A DNA stretch of 64,000 nucleotides, taken from NCBI GenBank assembly GCA_013239625.1, contig MU053881.1:2418001-2482000 (forward strand). Reading direction: 5' to 3'. The translations under genes and the position numbers were made by a program. The notes beneath the pieces are model-generated. The model searched no databases. It had not been told where the DNA came from and worked only from the letters and a program-made list of their open reading frames with translations. How positions within the stretch are numbered: position 1 is the first letter of the stretch; each line of letters begins with the position of its first letter. Positions 5,031-62,851 of this stretch are shown in pieces. Source of the stretch: Lama guanicoe. Taxonomy: Eukaryota.

Positions 5031-5603
5031 ATCCAGCTTGGCTGGAGTGTAGGAAGCATGAAAAGAGAGTAAGAAGATAGGACTGGCAAGATGGATGAAG
5101 AACGTTTTACCAAGAGGTTTGAATGACAGGTTGGGGGCCTCCTATTTATTTCCACAGGGACCAGGAACCAATGGGGTATGACTAGATCACACTGGGTTCC
5201 TAGAATCCTAAACCACTCTCTGAATTGGTCTCACCAATCCCTATTTCCTACCTCTCCAGCTCCCTTCCACCAGAGTGAAGCCTCAGAATCAGGTTTGCAA
5301 GAAGGCATAATCTGCTCACCCTCCATGGCCTGCTGGGCGACCTTGGCTGGAACACGCTCTGGGAATATCAGTGGAAACCCATGGGGCAGGAGTCTGCACC
5401 CCGGAGAATGGAGGCTTGGCGGGGCAAGTATTTGCTTCGTTCAGTAATGTGCTGCCAGCATGTAAAATAGTTACTGGCACATAATAAGTAGATGGTCAAT
5501 AAATCTTGGCGAATGGATAAATGAATTCTCCGGGGGTGGTGGCGGAAGTAGGCAGCAGAGGTTGGAGAGGCTCAGGCCCAAGAGCTGGAGGAGGCACCGC
5601 GTG

Positions 5604-5706
5604 GGGGTTGTCCATGGTCCTGAAAGCACTGCCGCACCAAGGACCGCTATCCGTGGTGCTGAAACAGAGCCCACAGCTTGCTTCACGGCCTATCCGTGGT
5701 GACTTG
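5604..5706 (-). promoter_or_regulatory. Tandem RE1/NRSE (REST) motifs
   Basis: Minus strand TTCAGGACCATGGACAACCCC (5604-5624), TTCAGCACCACGGATAGCGGT (5643-5663) and degenerate CAAGTCACCACGGATAGGCCG (5686-5706), against consensus TTCAGCACCACGGACAGCGCC. Confidence 0.8.
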
Positions 5707-8700
5707 GAAAGAGCTCAAAGCATCTTAGGAACCAAGGGGAAAGCAGACTCCATAACCTTGCCTCCTCTGCTAGTGCCAGTCCCCCAAGACCTTCTGCATG
5801 AGACAGATAACCTGGCACAGATCCAAGCAGGCCTGTTTCCTGATAGTGACCCTGTCCTCAGGGTGGATATCAGTCTGTCCTCCTGTACCTAAGCTCTCCA
5901 GGGTTGTGGGCCCCTGAAGGGTTCAAACGTCAGCATCTATTCAACCAGCCTCTGCTGGGGACCCTGGGAGAGGCATCCAGGCAGAGACGGGTTCTGGGCA
6001 GGCAGCCGGAGAGAGAAGCTGCATGCCAACAGCATTACTCGGAGGGCCTGGCAGGAGATTCCAGTCCTCACTGGCTCAAGGGCACTGCCAGACAAGGTGC
6101 CTGTGCTAGAAGGCAGTACATGGTGGGTGGTGGTGGCTGCTCTGTGATGACAGGTGAGATGGCAGGGGCAAGCTGGAGACACAGGTCAGCAGTGAGAGTG
6201 GAAATCTGTGAGTGGGACTAGGGAACTCATGGAATGGAATTTAACAGGGGTGTGGGAGCAGCAATAGGGGTGACCGACTAGGGAGGAAGTAAAGGGAATT
6301 TTAGAACAGAGATGGACTGGTGAGAGGGGCACCATCCTCACCAGATAGGAACAATCTAGTCCTAAACACAGACTCCTACACACATCCAGAGACAGGACTA
6401 CAGGTTGTTAGGTCTGGTCCAGGAGTTTGGCTCTGCTGGGGACTTCCTCTCTGACATCATCCTCACAGGGTGGAGGCCTCCTAACATTCTAATTTTGCCT
6501 AAGAACCACTCTGATTCTGCCATCCATGAACTTATCTAAACCTTTCTGGAAGCAATTTATATTTCCAGCCTGTATCACCTCTAGGGAAATGATTTTCAAA
6601 GTTTATTCCCTGCTGAGTGCAGCAGGATTTCCTGTTATTGGTTTTAAACTTACCTCTCCTGAGTTTTGGTGGGGGCCAGGAGTGGGGAGGGGTTCATTCC
6701 GTCAGACTGGGATTTAGTAAAGAAGTCATGTTCCCTTCTCTGTGCCCTTTCTGATTTTATAGATTTCTACCATATTCCCTCTTCGCCTCTTTCTGTACAC
6801 TGAAGTTGTCCCAGGTGGGCTAGAATGACTTTATATGACAGTTCCCCTCTCATCACAACTCTCTTGATTACAACCACATGCAGCTGTACTGAACTTTACA
6901 GTTACCTACACATCGTCATCTGAGTGAGACCGCAGACTCTCCCACCCTCTGAAGCAGGCCGCCAGGGAGCACAACCTCCATTTCACAAACTGAGGGTCAA
7001 GGAAGGGAAATGAATTACCCAGATCATGTGAGTCTGTAATAAAACCGAGGCTTCCCCCACCAATTTGGGGCTGGTGGTCTCCTAAGGAGACATGACCTCC
7101 AGCACCCCAGACTGTTGGATGCAAGTATACCTCACTCATGTACTGGGAGAAGAGAACGTTTACAGCTTCTTTCAAATTCCCTTTCCAACCATGTCCAGCT
7201 TTCTACTGCCCTTCTGAGTCCTTCCTTGGGAATGAAACTCCAAATACCCTCCCCCAGACACCATCCACATCATTTCCTCCAAACTCAAACTTGCTGGCCA
7301 TTCTCTGCCCAGTCAACTGCCTGTTAAGATAAGAGTTGCCTAAAGCTTATCCCTCATGAGCCTGGCATTTGACTACCACCCAGGAGAGTTTAGATTCAAC
7401 TGCTAACTTGGTGATTTCACTGTACACATCCTCTTCCAGATCTTTTATTTAAATGTTAAAAAAAAAGATTAGCTTCAATTCTTGGCGGAGCTCACATCTT
7501 ACACTTCTCTACCCAGAAGACTGTTTATTCATTCAGACCTTTTGTTTCCTTTCTTTGTCAGCTCCTTAACTTCCAGATGAATCCATTTTTTAAGACATAC
7601 GTATCTGTGAGACCCACAGCCCAGAATACTTAGGATGCACACAGTTGGAGGACACACACACACTCTTTATCAAGGCACCCATTTATACCAATGCTGGTGC
7701 CTCCACACTCATGCTCAGGCACACAAGTGTTTTCCCCACAGCACATTTCTCTCCACACTCACTCACACACCTGTCCATTGAGGAGAAACTTGGCTCTGTT
7801 CTTTGAGGAACCCAGTTCTTTCATATGTTTGACAGGATGGAAGGGGACGGAGCCAGGCAGGGAAATGCCAGCACATGAGAGAAATGGATCAGAGGCTCTG
7901 GAGCATCTGGAACTGTTGGGAGGGGATCAGGGAATTTCCTGAAATTTGGACCAGGGTGGTTAGAGAATCCTGGATGAGGACCTCTCTCAGCTATGGGCAG
8001 GGCTGGCTGCCCAGCTGTCTCCACCCGGGAGCATTCCTGTGAGTCCCATACACTGAGCACACACCAGACCAGGCAGGCAGCCTCTGTTCACACTTAGAAG
8101 AGCAGGTAGCCCTGAACCCCCAGGAGCTAGCCTTGTGGGGCAGGCATCCCGGCTTCCCAAGCAGGCAGTGAGGTCACCTTCACCCATGGGCACACCGTTC
8201 CTCCATCACACCAATGCTGTTGTCTGCCTCCAGGTGTACAAGGCAGCCCCTGGCCAGAGGCCCTATTCCCAGGCTCATATGATGTGTGAGAACATCTGTC
8301 ACCCCACCAAGCCACCCTGAGACCATCTCTCTCCCTGGCCATGCTGCCTGTAGAGGGTAGGGGTTGCCCACAGAGTCAGGTGGGGACCTGGAATTCCTCA
8401 GTGTTTTCATGAGAAGCAGCTGCTGCCTGAAATCCCAAAGGGGTGATGACTCCCTGCCTAGAGAGTTATACAAGCACCAACAAGGACCCAGAGCACTGCC
8501 ATCCACCTCTCACACTCCATGCTGCCTTGGGGCTGCCACACTGGCCCGCCGGCCCTAGTCGCCTGGCACAGGGTGGGCCCCGCCGGCCAGCCACTCTGGC
8601 CCAGCTATAGGGATGGAACACACCGAGGCTGGTCCCTGCCAGAGCCCTCACTCAGAGAACTGGGACGAATGAAGGAGGGACACTGCCAAATTAAACTATA

Positions 8701-13029: not shown

Positions 13030-13820
13030 ATAAGCATGAGGATATGGAAAAACTGGAACCCTCATGCATTGCTGGCGGGAACATAAAATGGTGCAGTTGC
13101 TGAGGGAAACATTTTGGTGGTTCCTCAAGACATTAAACCGAGAATTACCGTATGACCCAGCAACTCCACTCTTAGGTATGTACCCAAGAGAACCAAAAAC
13201 AGATCTTTAAACCAATCCTTGCACACAATTCTTCAGACCAGCATCATTCACAATATCTCCAAGGTGGAAACAGCCCAAATGTCCATCAAATGATGATAAT
13301 GGATAAACCAAATGTGGGCCATCTGTACAACGGAATATTACTTGGTCATAAAAAGGGATGAAGCACTGTTACATGCTACAACATGGATGGAACTCGGAAA
13401 CATGCTATGTCAGAGAAGCCAGACACTAAAGGCCACACACTGTATGATTTCATTTACGTGAAATACCCAGAATGGACAAGTCTACAGCGACAGAAGGCAG
13501 GTTGGTGTTTGCCAGGGACTGGGGAGAGTGGGGAATGGGGAGTGACAGCTAATGGAGTCTCCTTGGGGGCTGGTGAAAAGTATTTTGGAGCTAGATACAG
13601 TTGATGGTTGCATAACATTGTGAATGTACTAAATGCCACTAAACTGTGTACTTTAAAATGGTTAAATTTGGGGGTTTGGGGGAATAGCTCAGTGGTAGAG
13701 CATGTGCTTAGCATGCATGGGTTCAATCCCCAGTATCTCCATTCAAAAAAAAAAGGGCAAATGATTGTGTTCTAAAATGGTTAAATTTTATGTTGTATGG
13801 AGTTCACCTCAATTATATAT
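13030..13820 (+). mobile_element. L1M (L1MB-like) ORF2 end and 3' UTR
   Basis: GGAACCCTCATGCATTGCTGG, TTACCGTATGACCCAGCAACTCCACTC, GGAAACAGCCCAAATGTCCATCAA. Confidence 0.88.
13670..13772 (+). mobile_element. tRNA-derived SINE (vic-1-like) inserted in L1
   Basis: TAGCTCAGTGGTAGAGC A-box and GGTTCAATCC B-box, A tail, 16-bp TSD TAAAATGGTTAAATTT (13654-69 / 13773-88), short internal deletion relative to the other copies. Confidence 0.9.
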
Positions 13821-18611: not shown

Positions 18612-21579
18612 CTGGGGAAGGAATGCTGACCACCCTCAGAAGGGCGTCCTGGCCTATGTGGGGCCAGGCTTCAGGCATCTCACACCAAAGACAAGTTTCC
18701 CCCACAGTGGACCCCATTCTTAAAAGAATAGGATCTTGAGAGGATCAGGTGGGTCTCAAAGATGGACCTCTGGCTGTGTGATCCCAAAAGATCTGGAAGA
18801 AGACGGACTCTCAAAAAGTGTCAGGGCAGCCGCAAGACATCTAGGTAGGCTCAGATTCTGACCAGACATGCCCAATATGGAAAGATGGCCCCAAACCAAG
18901 GACAAAGCCACCAATGAGAGGCGTGGACTGGAGAAACAAGCAGGGAAGGTGAAGCTCAGGTCCAGCTGAGGCTTGTGGGAAATGCCAAAGTAAGACAGGG
19001 CAGAAGGGGCTTGGAGGAAGAGGACCAAGAAAGGGTGGGCCTTCTGACCGGTTGAGGGGGATGCTGCAGAGCAGGCCTCCACCTCCTACCATTCTGCACA
19101 TGACACCAAAGTAAAGAGACAGGACCGATGCTAGTAAGAAAGCACTGAAGGCCAAAAGGTGATATGAAGGCAGGCTGAGTGGTTGTCGGGAATCAATTCA
19201 GGTCTTTTGGTCCTGATAGATCACACCCCAGGCCCTGGCCTGAGAACCTGCTAAACTCCTCTGCTGACCTCTGAGAGAGTGCGAGTGGGAGAGCTCATGA
19301 GGCAGGAGATGCGTGAGCTGTGGCCTAGTTTTCAAAAAAGGAAGAAAGTTGGATTTGGTGAATGCACGGTTAGGTTATTTGAGTGCAAGCAACAGAAATC
19401 GATTCTCATAAATTTAAGCGAAAAGGGGGAAATACTGGCAAGAAACTGGGTTGTTGAGAGAAGGGAAAAGAGGCTAAAAAGCAGGCTCTGAAGCAGGAAA
19501 GAAACCAGGATGGGGAAATCACTCACCTGTCTCGTTTGGGCTCTGCTGCCAAGATGAAGGGGCCTGACAAACGCCAACTAAGGCTGTACCGGGGGGGAGG
19601 TCAGGGGGTCCTGGTGGGACTGGGAATGGAAGCTGGACAGATACAAAGCCCAACAAACGTCCACGGGAATAGCCACAGCCTGGTACCCCCCATGCAAACT
19701 CCAGGCGTGATTCTGTTAGCACCTCTTGGTCAGCTACAGGTGACCGAGGGAAGCAGGGACACTAAGAGACCCATCAGGACCCCCAAGGAGCCATCACACC
19801 AGATCAGCTTCCCTTATCATAGGGTTACCGTTCTCACAGGTCCGGGCTGGACTGGAAACTGTGTGTCTGGATTTCAGCCAGGCACCTGATAAAATATCTC
19901 AAGATCCACAAATGGAGATGTATGAACTAGGTGACAGAACATTTAAGGGCATGCAAAACCTTCTGAATGGCCAACATTGTTTTCTAACACAGCCAATTAA
20001 ATAGCTAATGTTGATCCAGACTTGGTTCTTTACCTTTGAGCCCCAGGCTGTGTCCTTGGTGCTATTCAGCATTTTGATTAAATACTTTGGTAAAACCGAC
20101 TGATGACACACTGGTTAAATCTGAGGACCATGTGCGCAACCCTTCTCGGTGGACAAGAAGCTGCGAGTGGTGGCAAACAGCCTGGATCAGGACAGTGACA
20201 CGGGTGGCTCAGGTTCAAGCTAACCTGCATAGCCATAAGCCCTGGCTCTGGGGACTGGCTCACTCCACCAGCACTTGAGTTGGGCCAATGAGGAAAGGTC
20301 AGGATGTCTGCATGTTGGCTGCAGGAAGAGATGCTCTCTCTTGCCCTGTAGCCTGGGCCTGCAAGGATATGGCCCTGGTAACTCCCGGCAGCTACCTTGG
20401 GACTGTGAAGCGAAGGGTTGTTGAAGAGTGGCACCCCACCCCTCCCCCCGACCAGGGCAGAGTTCGGGGATGAGTCCTGGTCACACTGTTATCCCTAGAT
20501 CCAACCATGTCTGAAGCCAGAGCTACCCCTGGCCTTTCAGTAATGTGCCAATACTTTTTTTTTTCCTTAACCCAGTTTGTGTTGGGTTTTCCAAAATCTG
20601 CAATAGACACAGTATCCTATGCTAGTCCATGCCAGGGCATTGTGTCACAGTGGGATGCGCTCCTAGGACTGACATCCAGGGGCAGGTAATAAAGATGCTG
20701 GGGACACAGAAGGGGGCTTGGAACCATGGGGAACAGCTGGGAGGACAGGAGGTGCCTGGCCTGGGAAAGGGCAGATGGAGCCCTGTCTTAGGGCCAGAAG
20801 GAGAAGCCAGGAACCATCCAGGGGAGCTTACCGGGAAGGATTCCACCTCACTATAAGACAGTTGCTTTAATTACAGCCCCAGCCACCTGAAAATGTGTGG
20901 CCGTGGACAAGTTGGAAAGCTAACCCCTAGGGGTTTTTTATGATCAAAGTCCTGTGGCCTGGACAATCCAATCCAGGTTTAGAAAGTGCCTGCACCCCGG
21001 TGGGGTGTGGCGTCCGGAGGCAGGATGTAGGGGGGAAACGGGCTCTGGGAGGTAAGTGGATTAGCCCAAGATCACAGTGGAGCAAGGTGGTCCCCAGTCG
21101 TCTTTCAAGTCCATGGGACACCAGAAAAGGCTCTGACAGTAAATGGACACGTGGGACAGGGTTCTGGTCCCCGCTGATGTGAGTGGAGGGCGGTGAGGCT
21201 GAGCAGTAACACTTCTCTGAGCCTCAGCGTCCTCATCTAATAAATGGGACTAACCTCACCCACCTCCTGGGCTGTCCTGAGGTTCTGATCAGTTGACACA
21301 GGTAGAGCCCAGCCCCGGCCACAGTTCCCATTATCATCAAGTTAATTAGGAATAAAAGATACGATAGTTTACAGCTACCGAAGCCTCCTCCTCTTCCCGC
21401 CCCAGGCCTCAATCCTAGCAGAAGGAGAATGAGTCTGGATGTCAAAGACTTGGGTTGGAACCCCAGGCCTGCCTAACCCATTCGGCACTCCCGAAGTGGG
21501 CCCTCCCTCATCTGTAAAATGGGACGGACCACAGCGGTGCATTTGAAGTCGCTGGCCTACAGGAGGTGCTCAGGCTATC

Positions 21580-22240
21580 TCCTTTCCGCTGCGAGGTCAG
21601 CCCGGGAGCTCTGGAAGCACGGAACGCAGCGGACCGCCAGAGGGGCCCACCGCTCCGCCTCGTCTCCGGGCCCCGAGGGAGGCGGCGCGGGTTGGGGCCG
21701 CGGTCCGGCGGGCGCGGGAAGCCAGGAGCGGCGGCCGCCGCGGAGCCGCCGTGCCCGGAGGCTGGATGCCCGCTCCCCGGGCGGCAACCGAGCGCTCAGC
21801 CAGGAACTTGTTAACAGGCCCCGGACAAAGAGCCGCTAATCCGGCGGGCGGCCGCGGGCGGGCTGGCGGGCGGAGGGATCCCGCCCCTTCCCCGCGCGGC
21901 TGCCGAGTTTACCGCTCACTCATTACCCGGCGCGGGGCGGGGGCGGGGGCGGGGGGCCACAGGGCTGGACGCTCAGCGCCTCCTCCTCCGGGACGCCCCC
22001 GGGGGCGCGCCCCTCCCCAGGGCCCCGGCGGGCGGGCGCGGAGGCTAATTGCTAATCCCCTGGGCTCGGGCTCCCATTGGCTCGGGCACCTGCCGCCCCA
22101 CAGCGGCTCACGTGCCCCGCGGCTCGCCTGGCCTGGGGCCTGCTTCCAGCCCGGGACCCCCGCCCGCCAAGCTACCTGGACAGCGGGGTGGGGGTTGTTT
22201 TGGGGAGAGGGGGAGGCTCCGGTCGCGCCGGGAAGATCAA
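21580..22240. promoter_or_regulatory. Intronic CpG island with GC-box array
   Basis: High CpG density, (GGGGC)n at 21934-21956, ATTGG (minus-strand CCAAT) at 22076-22080, CACGTG at ~22109. Confidence 0.8.
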
Positions 22241-28200: not shown

Positions 28201-29138
28201 GCTTCACCACACAAATAACCCCCTCCCATGCACACAGAAGCTCAGCTCTGCTAAGTGCATGGAGGGCGGTCAGAGATCAGGGAGGCCCAGCGTCTCAGTC
28301 AGCCTAGGTGGAAGCTCAGGGAGAACAGACAAAGGATGCACAGGGGAACTACCCCCCACCCCCAACCCAGGAGATGGGCTGAGGGCTGAGTAATGGGGCA
28401 GGTGAGGGTGGCCAAAGGGACACGAAGGGAGGGAGAAGGGCTGTGTAGCGAGAAAGAAGGGGGGAAGCGGTAATGTATCTACCGAGCACAACTCTGGCCC
28501 CCCAAGCACCAGGGAATCCGGGAGCCCCAGCTAGGGCCAGGGGCCGCGGAGCTGACTGTACGGGCTGCAAGGGCTGGGGGCTGGTGTAAGCGCCTCCACG
28601 CCTGAGTGTGTGCGTGTGCGAGCCTGTGTGGTGGGGACAGAGGAGGACACTGTGTTCCCGACGTGGGCAGAGGCCAGGTGCCAAGCTGGGAATTGTGAGT
28701 AGCTGTTTGGGGCAGATGCTGCTGGGAAGAGGTATCTTAAACCCCCTCCTCAATTTCCTAAGCACTGGGATGTGGTCCAAATCCACTGTTCTGCCAACCG
28801 TCCAAGTCAGACTCCCTGGGGCTTTGATCTAAATCCCACGACCCTGCTCTGGGGCAGGGCAACCAGCGAACTTCCCCCGCCTGGAGACGTGGGGCGTCTA
28901 CACTCGCCAGCCCCACGCGCTGACAGCTGCTCCTGGACTTGGCAGAACCCAGGCTTCCGGGGAAGTGCGCGGGGAAGCTGCGCAGCAGCGAGAGGCGGCC
29001 CCCGCGTCCCGCCTCGCAAAGTTTGGCCTCCGGGGGCTCCCAGCCGGGTCAGGCAGCGTGGGTCAGGGACCCCCAGAGCAGAGAGCGTTCGTGCCCACGG
29101 TCACCCTCAAGCCTCCCCAAAGCGCGCGCGTGACTCAC

Positions 29139-29208
29139 CCGAGCTGTGGAGCCAGGCGGCAAGGACTATACCCAGGAGCGCTGGCCACAGGCCGGGCCGG
29201 ACGGCCAT
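29139..29208 (-). CDS. UNC5A: UNC5A (netrin receptor UNC5A) coding exon 1, signal peptide
   Basis: Minus strand GCGGCC-ATG-G (strong Kozak) reads MAVRPGLWPALLGIVLAAWLHSS+G, matching the recalled human UNC5A N-terminus MAVRPGLWPALLGIVLAAWLRGSG. The exon is 70 nt (phase 1), is followed by the donor GTGAGT (29138-29133), and lies in a CpG island. Confidence 0.96.
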
Positions 29209-30864: not shown

Positions 30865-30981
30865 TTTTTGGGGGGGAGGCGATTAGGTTTATTTTTATTT
30901 ATTTGTTTAACGGTACAGGGTATGAACCCAGGACCTCGTGCATGCTAAGCACACACTCTACCACTGAGCTATCCTCTCCCC
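30865..30981 (-). mobile_element. tRNA-derived SINE (vic-1-like)
   Basis: Reverse complement reads GGGGAGAGGATAGCTCAGTGGTAGAG...GCATGCACGAGGTCCTGGGTTCA, with an AAATAAACCTAAT tail. Confidence 0.88.
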
Positions 30982-33430: not shown

Positions 33431-33999
33431 TCTTAGCCATGGGTGCTGCCAACAACTGGATGTTATTCATCTACCCTGGTCACTGGCTTTCTGAATTTAA
33501 ACGCAGAGACTTCAATTCACCCCAATTTTATTCCTTTGTATTACACCTAACCTTCTTTCCCCACGTGGAGCCTCTCAGGATGTGGGAGGCTGTTAGGCAG
33601 GGGACTCGCTGTTTTCTTCAGCTTCCTATCATTCCCAGATACATACTTTCATACTTTCAGTCAAGTCTTTACTAAACAGGTGGCTGGGATCAGTACCAAG
33701 GACAGATCCCACTGGCTTCCTCACTCTACATTACCTTGCAAGTTCCATGGGGAAATAAGACAGATTCTCTTTCATTCACTTGGGAAGCCTCCAATCACAT
33801 CACTCTACCCTTCAGCTCACACATCACTGCTGTACCCACAAAATAAATGGAAATTCCCTGTAGAGCCCCAGACACATGAGTCTCCTGCTTTGCCCTGATC
33901 TACCAGGCCAATAATCCAATCAAGCAGGAAATTAGTTTGGCAGGAAGGCCTTGTTCTTGGTGACCCAAAATTGGCTCTTGATGGTCCCTGCCCTGATCC

Positions 34000-35194: not shown

Positions 35195-35215
35195 TCCAGG
35201 ACCAAGGACAGCTCC
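35195..35215 (+). promoter_or_regulatory. RE1/NRSE (REST) motif upstream of UNC5A
   Basis: TCCAGGACCAAGGACAGCTCC, 17/21 match to consensus with the GGACAG core intact. Confidence 0.65.
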
Positions 35216-43621: not shown

Positions 43622-43651
43622 NNNNNNNNNNNNNNNNNNNNNNNNNNNNNN
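43622..43651. other. Assembly gap (30 N) next to a poly-C run
   Basis: Directly visible. Confidence 1.
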
Positions 43652-50290: not shown

Positions 50291-52639
50291 AGGTCCTGAA
50301 GGGTGGGGGAAGTGAGCCGAGCGAGCCAGCCACCGTGGGGCTTGTTGAACTTGTTTTTAATAGCTTCTCTTTCTCCCCAGGATGTGGGACCATAGGCTGA
50401 GGCTGACCCCTGAATCCAGGTGCTGGGCCCACAAAAAACACAAGTAAAGCACGTGGACCCTACCCCTATTCCCCCCACAAAGACAAAGAAGGTTAGGATT
50501 GGAGCAACCATCAGCTCAGAGGTCTTAATCTAGGATTTGCAGACAGATTTCGGGAGGTACAGAAACCTCTGAAACCACTTGCCAAATCTGTGGGGTCTCA
50601 TGTGTGCACTTTTCTGGGCAGAGGATCCACAACTTAATGAAGTCTCAAAGCAGTCTGCAACCTGAAAGAGGTTCACCGGGAGGGACAGTGGTGTTCAAGT
50701 CTGAACAAGAGCTGGAGGCAGAATCAAGAAGAGAACCTTGGTCGGCCAGCGTCCTGCCCCTACGTATCACTGCCATGTTCTCGTGTGCACGGCAGTCCAC
50801 ACGCCGCATCTCATTTGATTTAGTCCTCTGCACGTGCCCTAGGAAGTAGCTGCTGTCCCTATTTTGCGGGTGACAGAACCCACGATTTGCTCAAGGTTAC
50901 AAGTGGTGTAGTGGGTTCAAGCCCCGGTCCGACTCCACAGAGCCTTTTTTCACAGGACACCAAGCTGCCTCCCTTTATTTTACCTCCGTTAGTCTTTAGA
51001 GCCACCCAGTGAGATCAGGTGATGGGAACCCAAACTCAGGGGGTGAAGTCATTTGGCTCAGGGAACACAGCAGTGGCAGGGTCGGGACTTGAACCCAGGT
51101 CTGTCTGAGGCCATAGCTGGTGCATTTCCCCCCACCTGGCTCACTGTCAGCTCACTGTTTAGCTGAGGCACCAGGGACAGATGCCAGGCTGGCCTGACCA
51201 TCATTTAATTTAGAATTTTTCCTTGCAAGCTTGTCAGGGAGATACCAGGGACCATGGCCTGGTTGGGGACAGCCTGGCCTGGTCTTAGTGTTCCTCCTAC
51301 ACCCCACCCCTCCCCAGCCTGTTGGTCTCATCGAGCACAGAGGTCACTGGCCCCACTGCCCGCTGCAGGGCCCGGCCACCCATGGGCTCCTGCACAGGGG
51401 TAGGGGGTGTGGGGGCTTTCTGCTCCAATACACACAGCTACCACCGCCACACACTGCTCTGAACGGCTCCAAAAGCCATAAAGCAGCTGAGAAAAAATGA
51501 TGCCGGGAGAGGAAACGAGCCACGGAGGAAATTAACTCGCACCCAGGGAACCGCGCGGCTTTCTGCTGACAGAGAGGGCCGGCTACCTCATAAAACTAAA
51601 CACTTAAACTCTCCTCTTTACAATAATTACAGCACCTTGAATGCCTCTTTCCCCTGCCCTGGCTGGCCCAGGCCGGCTCTGCGCGGGGTACCAAGGGGAG
51701 AAGTGTTGAAGTGAGGGTGGCTGCCGGAGCAGGGGCCCCCACAGCAGGAGGACCGGCCAGAGAGCTGGAGAAAATGAGAGCTGACCGGGGGCTTGGGGAC
51801 CGACTATTTCAACCCTGTCATTTGAGAGATGAGGAAACTAGAGGCCCAGAGAGGGTTTGTGACTAAGTGAAGGTCACCCAGCCGGTTATAGGTGGAACGG
51901 ACTAAAAGCGGGTCCTCTCCCTGATGGGCAGTGAAAGCAGTTTCCACTGAATCACTGCCCTAATTCCACAAACACTTCCACAGAAGCCGGGCCATGAGCC
52001 AGACTCTGTGCCAGAGCCCAGGGGAAACACCACGGGGCTGTCTTGGCCCCCAGTTAGAACGTGAGCTCCTGAACACCAGGGGCACATCGGTCCCCTTTAC
52101 ATCGTGTTCTGGCCCCCGGAGCAAGGCCAGACTCACAGAAAGCCACCTGGGGATACTTTCAGAGCAGCAGCCCTGAATCCCTGCGAAAAGACCAGTCTCC
52201 TCACCCCCTGGCCATTGAGGCAACCCCGGGAAGAGGCGGTAACGAACTAGAGGCTTGGCAGAAGCAAGAAGCCCCAGGAGCCACGGCGCGCCTACCAACA
52301 GGGGCGGGTGTCAGACTCCAGGCTGAGAGCGCAGGGCTTCCCCTTCCCAGCTGCACCCAACTGCTCTCTGGGCCTTTGACCCCAGCTTCTCTCTCCTCCA
52401 GTCTGCCTTCAGCATTGCCTATCAGCTCTGCTGGGGAGGACTCCTACCATCTGTGACCCTCCACCTGCTCCCCAGCCCTCTCCACTCATCGTCCATTCCT
52501 CACTTGCACTCCTCCCCCAGCAACAGCCTTCCTCTCCTGCTTGGCACGAGGCTGCCTTCTGTACTTCAAGAGCTCCCCCCCCAACCCTCCTCTCCGAGTG
52601 AGGGACAGCTGTTGTTTTTTTCCTGCAAGCATCATCCCC

Positions 52640-53410
52640 CTCTGTGGGACCACCCCTCCCCCTCGTTCAGTCCTGGAGGTTTGAAAGAATCTGATCACTT
52701 GGGAGGGGTGGGAGTGGCTCATGCCCCAGGCTTGGCCAGTCAGCGTATCTCATCACCCTGGAGATGGAGGGTAGTTTGGAGATGGACAGGGAACCCGACG
52801 TCTAATCCAGATGAATCCTGGGATTGTGGCGACCGGTCCCTTCTTTTTGCTGGGACTACTGAGCTGACAGTGTAAGCCTGATGCTGCAGAGGACTTGAGA
52901 ATAAAGCCAATAAAGGTTAAAACATATATATATGTTTTATATATATATATATATATATATAAATGAATTACGCGCCGTGGCTCCTGGGGCTTCTTGCTTC
53001 TGCCAAGCCTCTCTCTCTATATATATATATAAATGAATTACTAGGCTGTACAACAAAAATTAACACAACATTGTAAATCGACTATACTTCAGTTTTTTAA
53101 AAAAGCCAACACAGAGGAGAGAGACCTGAAATGGGGAGTTAGAGCTTCCAGACGACTTGTTGAGCACCTGGATCCAACTGTGCCTGAAGTTATCTGAGCC
53201 AGGAAATCATATTATTTATAATAATATTAATAATTATTCTATTCTATATAATTATATAGTTATGTGATTAATTATATTATTATGTAGTAATTATAATTGT
53301 TATTATGAGGATTTTTACTTTGTGAATAATAATTTTACTATTACTGTTTTGTTTCAGCCAGTCTGAATTTAGTTTCTGTCACTTACAACCAAAAGATTCT
53401 AAGTAATGTG
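52640..53410 (+). mobile_element. Old MLT1 (ERVL-MaLR) LTR, interrupted
   Basis: GAGCACCTGGATCCAACTGTGCCTGAAG and the terminal TTTCTGTCACTTACAACCAAAAGATTCTAA. Confidence 0.65.
52911..53101 (+). mobile_element. Short L1 3'-end fragment with (TA)n, nested in an MLT1 LTR
   Basis: CTGTACA...AACACAACATTGTAAATCGACTATACTTCA resembles laurasiatherian L1 3' termini. TSD AAAGCCAA (52903-10 / 53102-09). Confidence 0.75.
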
Positions 53411-60731: not shown

Positions 60732-60859
60732 GGGGAGGGTGTAGCTCAGTGGTAGAGCACCTGCTTAGCATGCATGAGGTCCTGGGTTCAATCCCCAGCA
60801 CTTTTATTAAAAATAAAATAAACCTAATTATCTGCTCCCCCAATTCTGTTTTTAAAAAA
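60732..60859 (+). mobile_element. tRNA-derived SINE (vic-1-like)
   Basis: GGGGAGGGTGTAGCTCAGTGGTAGAGC...GGTTCAATCCCCAG followed by an AAATAAACCTAATTA tail. Confidence 0.9.
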
Positions 60860-62755: not shown

Positions 62756-62851
62756 GAGAGGAATATAGCTCAGTGGTACAGCGTGTGCTTAGTGTGCATG
62801 AGGTCCTGGGTTCAATCCTCGGTACCTCCACTAACGATGAAAACAAACAAA
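62756..62851 (+). mobile_element. tRNA-derived SINE (vic-1-like)
   Basis: A/B boxes, A-rich tail, TSD AAAG(A/G)AATCTGAG (62743-55 / 62852-64). Confidence 0.88.

Follow-up and report, generated by a model that had tools for sequence, protein, structure and literature searches.

The UNC5A locus

The window, by which we mean the whole 64-kb stretch of Lama guanicoe DNA that was analysed, carries the first coding exon of UNC5A, which is a dependence receptor as well as a guidance receptor for netrin-1. On the minus strand, an ATG at 29208 opens MAVRPGLWPALLGIVLAAWLHSS, a 23-residue peptide, with a GT donor at 29138. The sole PDB hit for this peptide at E values up to 10 is human-type UNC5A (4v2a_A, E 4.6e-8), and the best match in the window to a mouse Unc5a qPCR primer (17/21) is at 29158-29178, within the same exon. 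Exon 2 was not located within the 64-kb window. The distance from the donor to the RE1 cluster described below is 23.43-23.54 kb, and the placement of the cluster about 23.5 kb deep in UNC5A intron 1, proposed in an earlier note on this DNA, thus holds.

A second CpG island, at 21500-22200, is found about 7 kb into intron 1 (GC 0.65 and CpG o/e 0.74 in 21001-22000). It carries GC boxes and a CCAAT motif on the minus strand, and it is possible that it acts as an internal promoter or enhancer and is a target of the RE1 cluster. Elsewhere in the window, the tRNA search gave hits at 13678-13741, 30908-30978, 60735-60806, and 62758-62830. These are not tRNA genes; all four come from a single tRNA-derived SINE and have A-rich tails, and its family presumably resembles a camelid one. 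The window also contains a perfect 42-bp inverted pair (52249-52290 and 52971-53012, about 680 bp apart) and an assembly gap of 30 N at 43622-43651.

A tandem RE1 cluster in intron 1

Three RE1 copies are present on the minus strand of intron 1 (Table 1), with start-to-start spacings of 39 bp between copies 1 and 2 and 43 bp between copies 2 and 3. Scoring was by matching to the RE1 consensus quoted in the earlier note, not by a matrix (RE1 PSSM 0.91 or JASPAR MA0138), and it reproduced the coordinates, strand, match counts (17/21 and 18/21), and spacings given there.

Table 1. Features of the UNC5A locus in the window, and REST peaks assigned to UNC5A in human ES cells
Feature	Position	Strand	Sequence	Match, score or remark
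RE1 copy 1	5604-5624	minus	TTCAGGACCATGGACAACCCC	17/21 to RE1 consensus
RE1 copy 2	5643-5663	minus	TTCAGCACCACGGATAGCGGT	18/21 to RE1 consensus
RE1 copy 3	5686-5706	minus	CAAGTCACCACGGATAGGCCG	12/21 to RE1 consensus
Reverse partial RE1	5630-5650	plus	core GCACCAAGGAC	14/21; 8-bp overlap with 3' tail of copy 2
Tandem duplication, two 43-bp units	5643-5685 and 5686-5728	minus		carry copies 2 and 3
Orthology anchor, weak	6134-6154	minus		15/21 to mouse 21-mer 441 bp gene-5' of REST summit
UNC5A exon 1, coding part (signal peptide)	29139-29208	minus		inside CpG island
Inner upstream RE1	33689-33709	plus		16/21
Outer upstream RE1	35195-35215	plus		20/21 identical to mouse site mus25984:50
Human REST peak, upstream	hg19 chr5:176,230,979			score 3,531; conserved (PMC4499139)
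Human REST peak, upstream	hg19 chr5:176,233,252			score 1,648; non-alignable to mouse (PMC4499139)
Human REST peak, intronic	hg19 chr5:176,264,615			score 13,942; conserved (PMC4499139)
Human REST peak, distant and weak				score 39 (PMC4499139)

Matches of this quality are rare by chance, as the earlier note had assumed: three matches of at least 17/21 were observed in the window, against a mean of 0.01 in 300 dinucleotide shuffles of it, and a same-strand pair of at least 16/21 within 100 bp arose in 0 of the 300 shuffles. Over the 29 kb of intron 1 inside the window, copies 1 and 2 are also the sole matches to reach 16/21. Both have the canonical RE1 arrangement of a left half, a 2-bp gap, and a right half, and they lie head to tail within 100 bp of each other, as tandem RE1s do (two or more sites within 100 bp). 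The RE1 identity of the cluster is therefore upheld, and the tandem RE1 cluster is real. Copy 3 (12/21) and the reverse partial site (14/21) fall outside the canonical 21-bp RE1. For matches at the level of copy 3, 326 were observed in the window against a mean of 270 in the shuffles, which is background; copy 3 therefore counts only through the core and the spacer likeness that it shares with copy 2.

The shared core is an exact 12-mer, CTATCCGTGGTG, found in copy 2 (5647-5658) and copy 3 (5690-5701), 43 bp apart. The likeness extends beyond the motifs, in that the 22-bp spacers following copies 2 and 3 align with a score of 16, which 5 of 2000 random window pairs equal; this was the best of three comparisons, the remaining two being at background. 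The suggestion of a local duplication is thus borne out for copies 2 and 3, which are carried by two 43-bp units. A derivation of copy 1 from copy 2 by duplication was rejected, as their spacer similarity is only at background.

On the opposite strand, the core of the reverse partial RE1 forms a 10-bp inverted repeat with the core of copy 2, recovered as an inverted self-hit. Cores as good were obtained in 69 of 20000 random spacers, at a threshold picked post hoc. Of the description of the locus as a same-orientation cluster, the three minus-strand copies stand, but a plus-strand partial site overlaps copy 2. A hairpin or cruciform role was not supported, since the DNA fold of 5600-5710 is ordinary (z -1.10, with 29 of 200 shuffles equally stable). 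Similarly, the cluster was not called as a minisatellite by TRF at score 30, Rfam and tRNA searches gave no non-coding RNA hit at the cluster, and no ORF of at least 150 aa runs across it.

Two further RE1s lie upstream of the gene, about 6 kb (outer) and 4.5 kb (inner) from the UNC5A start codon. The mouse counterpart of the outer site, mus25984:50, is a REST-bound RE1 annotated 5' of Unc5a and bound in three mouse cell types; the 20/21 identity therefore pins the locus. The inner site corresponds by position to a human REST peak that is marked as non-alignable to mouse, which suggests that this RE1 was lost in mouse. The inner peak is 2.2 kb gene-ward of the outer one in human, against 1.5 kb between the two sites here.

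REST occupancy at the matching position in human and mouse

In human ES cells, four REST peaks are assigned to UNC5A (Table S2 of PMC4499139), and the intronic one tops the 148 conserved-peak rows counted by hand in one of the 95 parts of that table. Two mouse UNC5A peaks are given in the same source, with scores of 475 and 1,430. A ChIP-PET dataset from mouse ES cells places a peak of 48 PETs in Unc5a intron 1 (PMC2573930, Dataset S4), above Celsr3 (46) and Snap25 (34). This peak is row 2445 of 2,460 in a list that is sorted by count where examined, so that about 16 peaks rank higher, and it is also present in neural stem cells, with 6 PETs.

The order of the UNC5A peaks in human, two upstream and one intronic, is the order of the RE1s here. 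Between the conserved upstream site and the intronic one there are 33.7 kb in human, compared with 29.6 kb here and 25.5 kb in mouse. Additionally, a weak sequence anchor (6134-6154) lies on the correct strand, 448-530 bp from the three copies; matches of its quality (at least 15/21) number 10 in the whole window, 4 of them on its strand. REST ChIP peaks are thus present at the positionally matching site in both species. Judged by position and this one weak anchor, the human and mouse intronic peaks (hg19 chr5:176,264,615-176,264,987 and mm10 chr13:54,970,899-54,971,185) are very probably orthologous to the cluster, and we are highly confident that REST occupies the cluster in Lama guanicoe as well.

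Two observations bear on how far the mouse data can be carried over. Across the consulted parts of the six files of the mouse study, no RE1 is listed at the peak summit, and the motif that is listed is weak and 441 bp off; mouse may be without an intact copy 2, or the study tables may omit an RE1 at the summit. Also, four mouse ChIP and bisulfite primers (PMC5389556) match neither the surroundings of the cluster nor those of the upstream site better than the window background, and the mouse heart ChIP is therefore not assignable to the intronic cluster.

Contribution of the individual copies

The explanation that we consider probable is that the cluster is a conserved, strongly REST-bound RE1 element, built by local duplication, which aids repression of UNC5A outside neurons. 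Its parts would be an intact copy 2, a weaker copy 1, and further remnants in decay. In copy 2, a complete left half is separated by a 2-bp gap from the right half GGATAGCG; this copy has both the CAGCAC hexamer and a C at position 9 and, as judged from its sequence, is most likely the main REST site. The hexamer, which belongs to the left half, is essential by EMSA (PMC8096226). Copy 1 keeps the canonical spacing and has CAGGAC and C9; it carries a G at position 6 and an A at position 17. REST tolerates G6, given that it occupies a mouse site with this base in three cell types (ES, neural stem, and 3T3), and no bound RE1 with A17 was seen among the published sites examined in part; copy 1 is probably a weaker REST site. 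Copy 3 retains the core CACCACGGATAG but has a broken left half, with 3 of the 6 bases of CAGCAC together with C9. It appears to be a decayed duplicate of copy 2 and, at best, a right-half site.

REST contacts the left half of a site with zinc fingers 7-8 and the right half with fingers 3-5, one molecule per site, which leaves room for one or two REST molecules at the cluster. In line with this, tandem NRSEs were found by EMSA to bind one REST per site (PMC8096226). We lean slightly towards more than one of the sites being occupied.

A single effective site is a serious contender, although we would put it at somewhat under an even chance. Copy 2 alone would then bind REST, and the other two copies would be decaying remnants, as would the reverse core; this agrees with the explanation given above on occupancy and differs from it on there being several sites. 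The half-eroded essential hexamer of copy 3 and the A17 of copy 1 are what would be expected of remnants, as is the reverse core, which overlaps copy 2 and is mismatched at positions 4 and 16. However, the mouse peak is level with or above those of the known tandem sites Snap25 and Celsr3, and the 17/21 match of copy 1 would be hard to retain unselected if the element predates the human-mouse split. REST is also reported to bind sites with only a right half, which leaves a potential part for copy 3.

A further reading, in which the cluster is among the strongest mammalian REST sites because two head-to-tail sites are stacked with an overlapping reverse core, which lets REST load either way around copy 2, is improbable. 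Were it true, the cluster would be an exception to the reported strict head-to-tail order of tandem RE1s, REST would be retained until very low levels in differentiating neurons, and the cluster would time the onset of UNC5A, a death-inducing netrin receptor.

REST loss and the repression of UNC5A

Loss of REST derepresses the gene in some settings. In the embryonic ventricle of Rest-null mice, Unc5a expression is raised (log2FC 1.28, adjusted P 8.5e-6), with a 7.1-fold change by qPCR in the column that, following the main text of the source, was taken as the Rest knockout. UNC5A is also listed for REST-knockdown HEK and MCF10a cells. With dominant-negative REST in mouse ES and neural stem cells, Unc5a is not among the genes listed as changed in the consulted part of that study, and Snap25, Celsr3, and Unc5b are; the majority of bound genes were unresponsive there, and the responders have sites near the start. 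All of the effects on UNC5A act at the level of the gene, and the intronic cluster is not separated in them from the upstream RE1s.

The earlier proposal of a multi-site silencer that restricts UNC5A therefore survives in part: the gene is repressed by REST in some non-neural cells, but binding at every copy is doubtful. That the cluster, rather than the upstream RE1s, does the silencing is a candidate reading, weakened by the ES and neural stem cells, in which no Unc5a change is listed. On balance, a measurable contribution of the cluster to UNC5A silencing seems rather likely. REST at the cluster would recruit co-repressors; those of REST include HDAC, Sin3, and CoREST. The cluster and the two upstream RE1s would jointly keep UNC5A low outside neurons, and the most plausible route would be the damping of enhancer-promoter contact from a distance. 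Such a route has a precedent in a distal NRSE of the protocadherin cluster, which is reported to repress by weakening enhancer-promoter contacts (PMC8096226).

A strongly bound but redundant cluster is rather unlikely. The upstream RE1s, at 4.5-6 kb, would then do the repressing, or the target of the cluster would be another promoter, for instance the CpG island within the intron (21.5-22.2 kb) or the promoter of a neighbouring gene. The dominant-negative result fits redundancy, as do the reported strength of REST repression from near the start site, the existence of two upstream RE1s (one of them bound in three mouse cell types), and the location of the intronic CpG island, 16 kb from the cluster. 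Against it, the intronic binding is marked as conserved in human and mouse and gives the strongest UNC5A peak in each of them, which suggests selection, and the protocadherin precedent indicates that an NRSE can repress from afar.

Sequence coverage and flanking repeats were considered as well. All 37 sampled words of 5450-5850 are contained in 17 of the 24 listed runs, and 3 more contain a fraction of 0.89; 14 of those 20 runs are flagged as possible window sources, and 3 of the 17 complete ones are unflagged. Therefore, this stretch is not an assembly error. Alignment of 4 of the 24 runs left 5604-5691 uncovered, and two runs that contain the words placed nothing on the cluster, which may be an effect of filtering. 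An old dispersed-repeat fragment at 5441-5527, just outside the cluster, matches four other places weakly (E 0.06-3.6) and presumably resembles a LINE2 3' end. It is very improbable that the copies arose by chance or by faulty assembly, or that they are a passive LINE2- or ERV-borne relic without REST binding. RE1-like motifs are known in LINE2 and ERV elements (those in ERVs being unbound), and about 77 bp separate copy 1 from the end of the repeat fragment. Against such an origin, shuffling yields no such pair, neither the cluster nor its right flank recurs in the window (the left flank alone having weak dispersed hits), and the sequence on either side can be aligned at about 85-89% to a more distant animal.

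Comparison with known RE1 systems

Head-to-tail tandem RE1s have been described in human, with 27 pairs within 100 bp and groups of up to five, including SNAP25, L1CAM, and KCNN4, and tandem duplication was proposed as their origin (PMC1557810). The UNC5A cluster is similar to these in its single orientation, spacing below 100 bp, intronic location, combination of one strong copy with weaker ones, and proposed origin by duplication. Unlike them, it adds a reverse-strand core, and unlike the Snap25 tandem RE1, which is less than 1 kb from the start, it is 23.5 kb away.

A search with the tandem pattern in a metagenome collection returned five loci with spacings of 39-51 bp, a range that is partly forced by the pattern. 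Compared with the window, they show no alignment beyond two short hits of 23-28 bp. The arrays span 1484-1830 (L003), 961-1769 (L004), 1412-1614 (L005), 1490-1549 (L001), and 372-433 (L002). In L003, a 51-bp unit with an RE1 is repeated 6.8 times, and L004 has ten RE1-like copies in 42-bp units; both copy numbers top the five-copy maximum given for human (PMC1557810). The contigs are AT-rich and CpG-poor and are probably animal host DNA.

The closest known counterpart is the UNC5A intron-1 peak of human and mouse (PMC4499139, PMC2573930), with which the cluster shares gene, intron, order, and proportional distances. That peak is known from peak tables only, and the comparison with the copies is one of position, not of sequence. 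In the literature searched, to which subscription papers were largely external, no published description of a UNC5A intron-1 RE1 element was found; in the consulted part of PMC5425218, UNC5A is mentioned only for super-enhancers after GRHL3 knockdown. The analysis supplies a sequence anatomy for this REST peak, which is very strong, conserved in human and mouse, and was found only as rows of supplementary tables. The release of UNC5A on REST loss could matter in neurons and in REST-less tumours.

The cluster also resembles the composite NRSEs of CELSR3 and PCDH-gamma-a, which have several motifs per peak and there bind one REST each, and the distal HS5-1 NRSE, whose action from a distance is what we propose for UNC5A (PMC8096226). 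However, the CELSR3 and HS5-1 sites are wide-gap and non-canonical, whereas the sites of the UNC5A cluster have a 2-bp gap. Tandem RE1s are a described class, of which the UNC5A cluster is an ordinary example, and the general understanding of REST is unchanged by it. Within this class, the cluster is well suited to testing whether tandem RE1s that are distal and highly occupied silence the gene in which they lie or are redundant with promoter-side sites.
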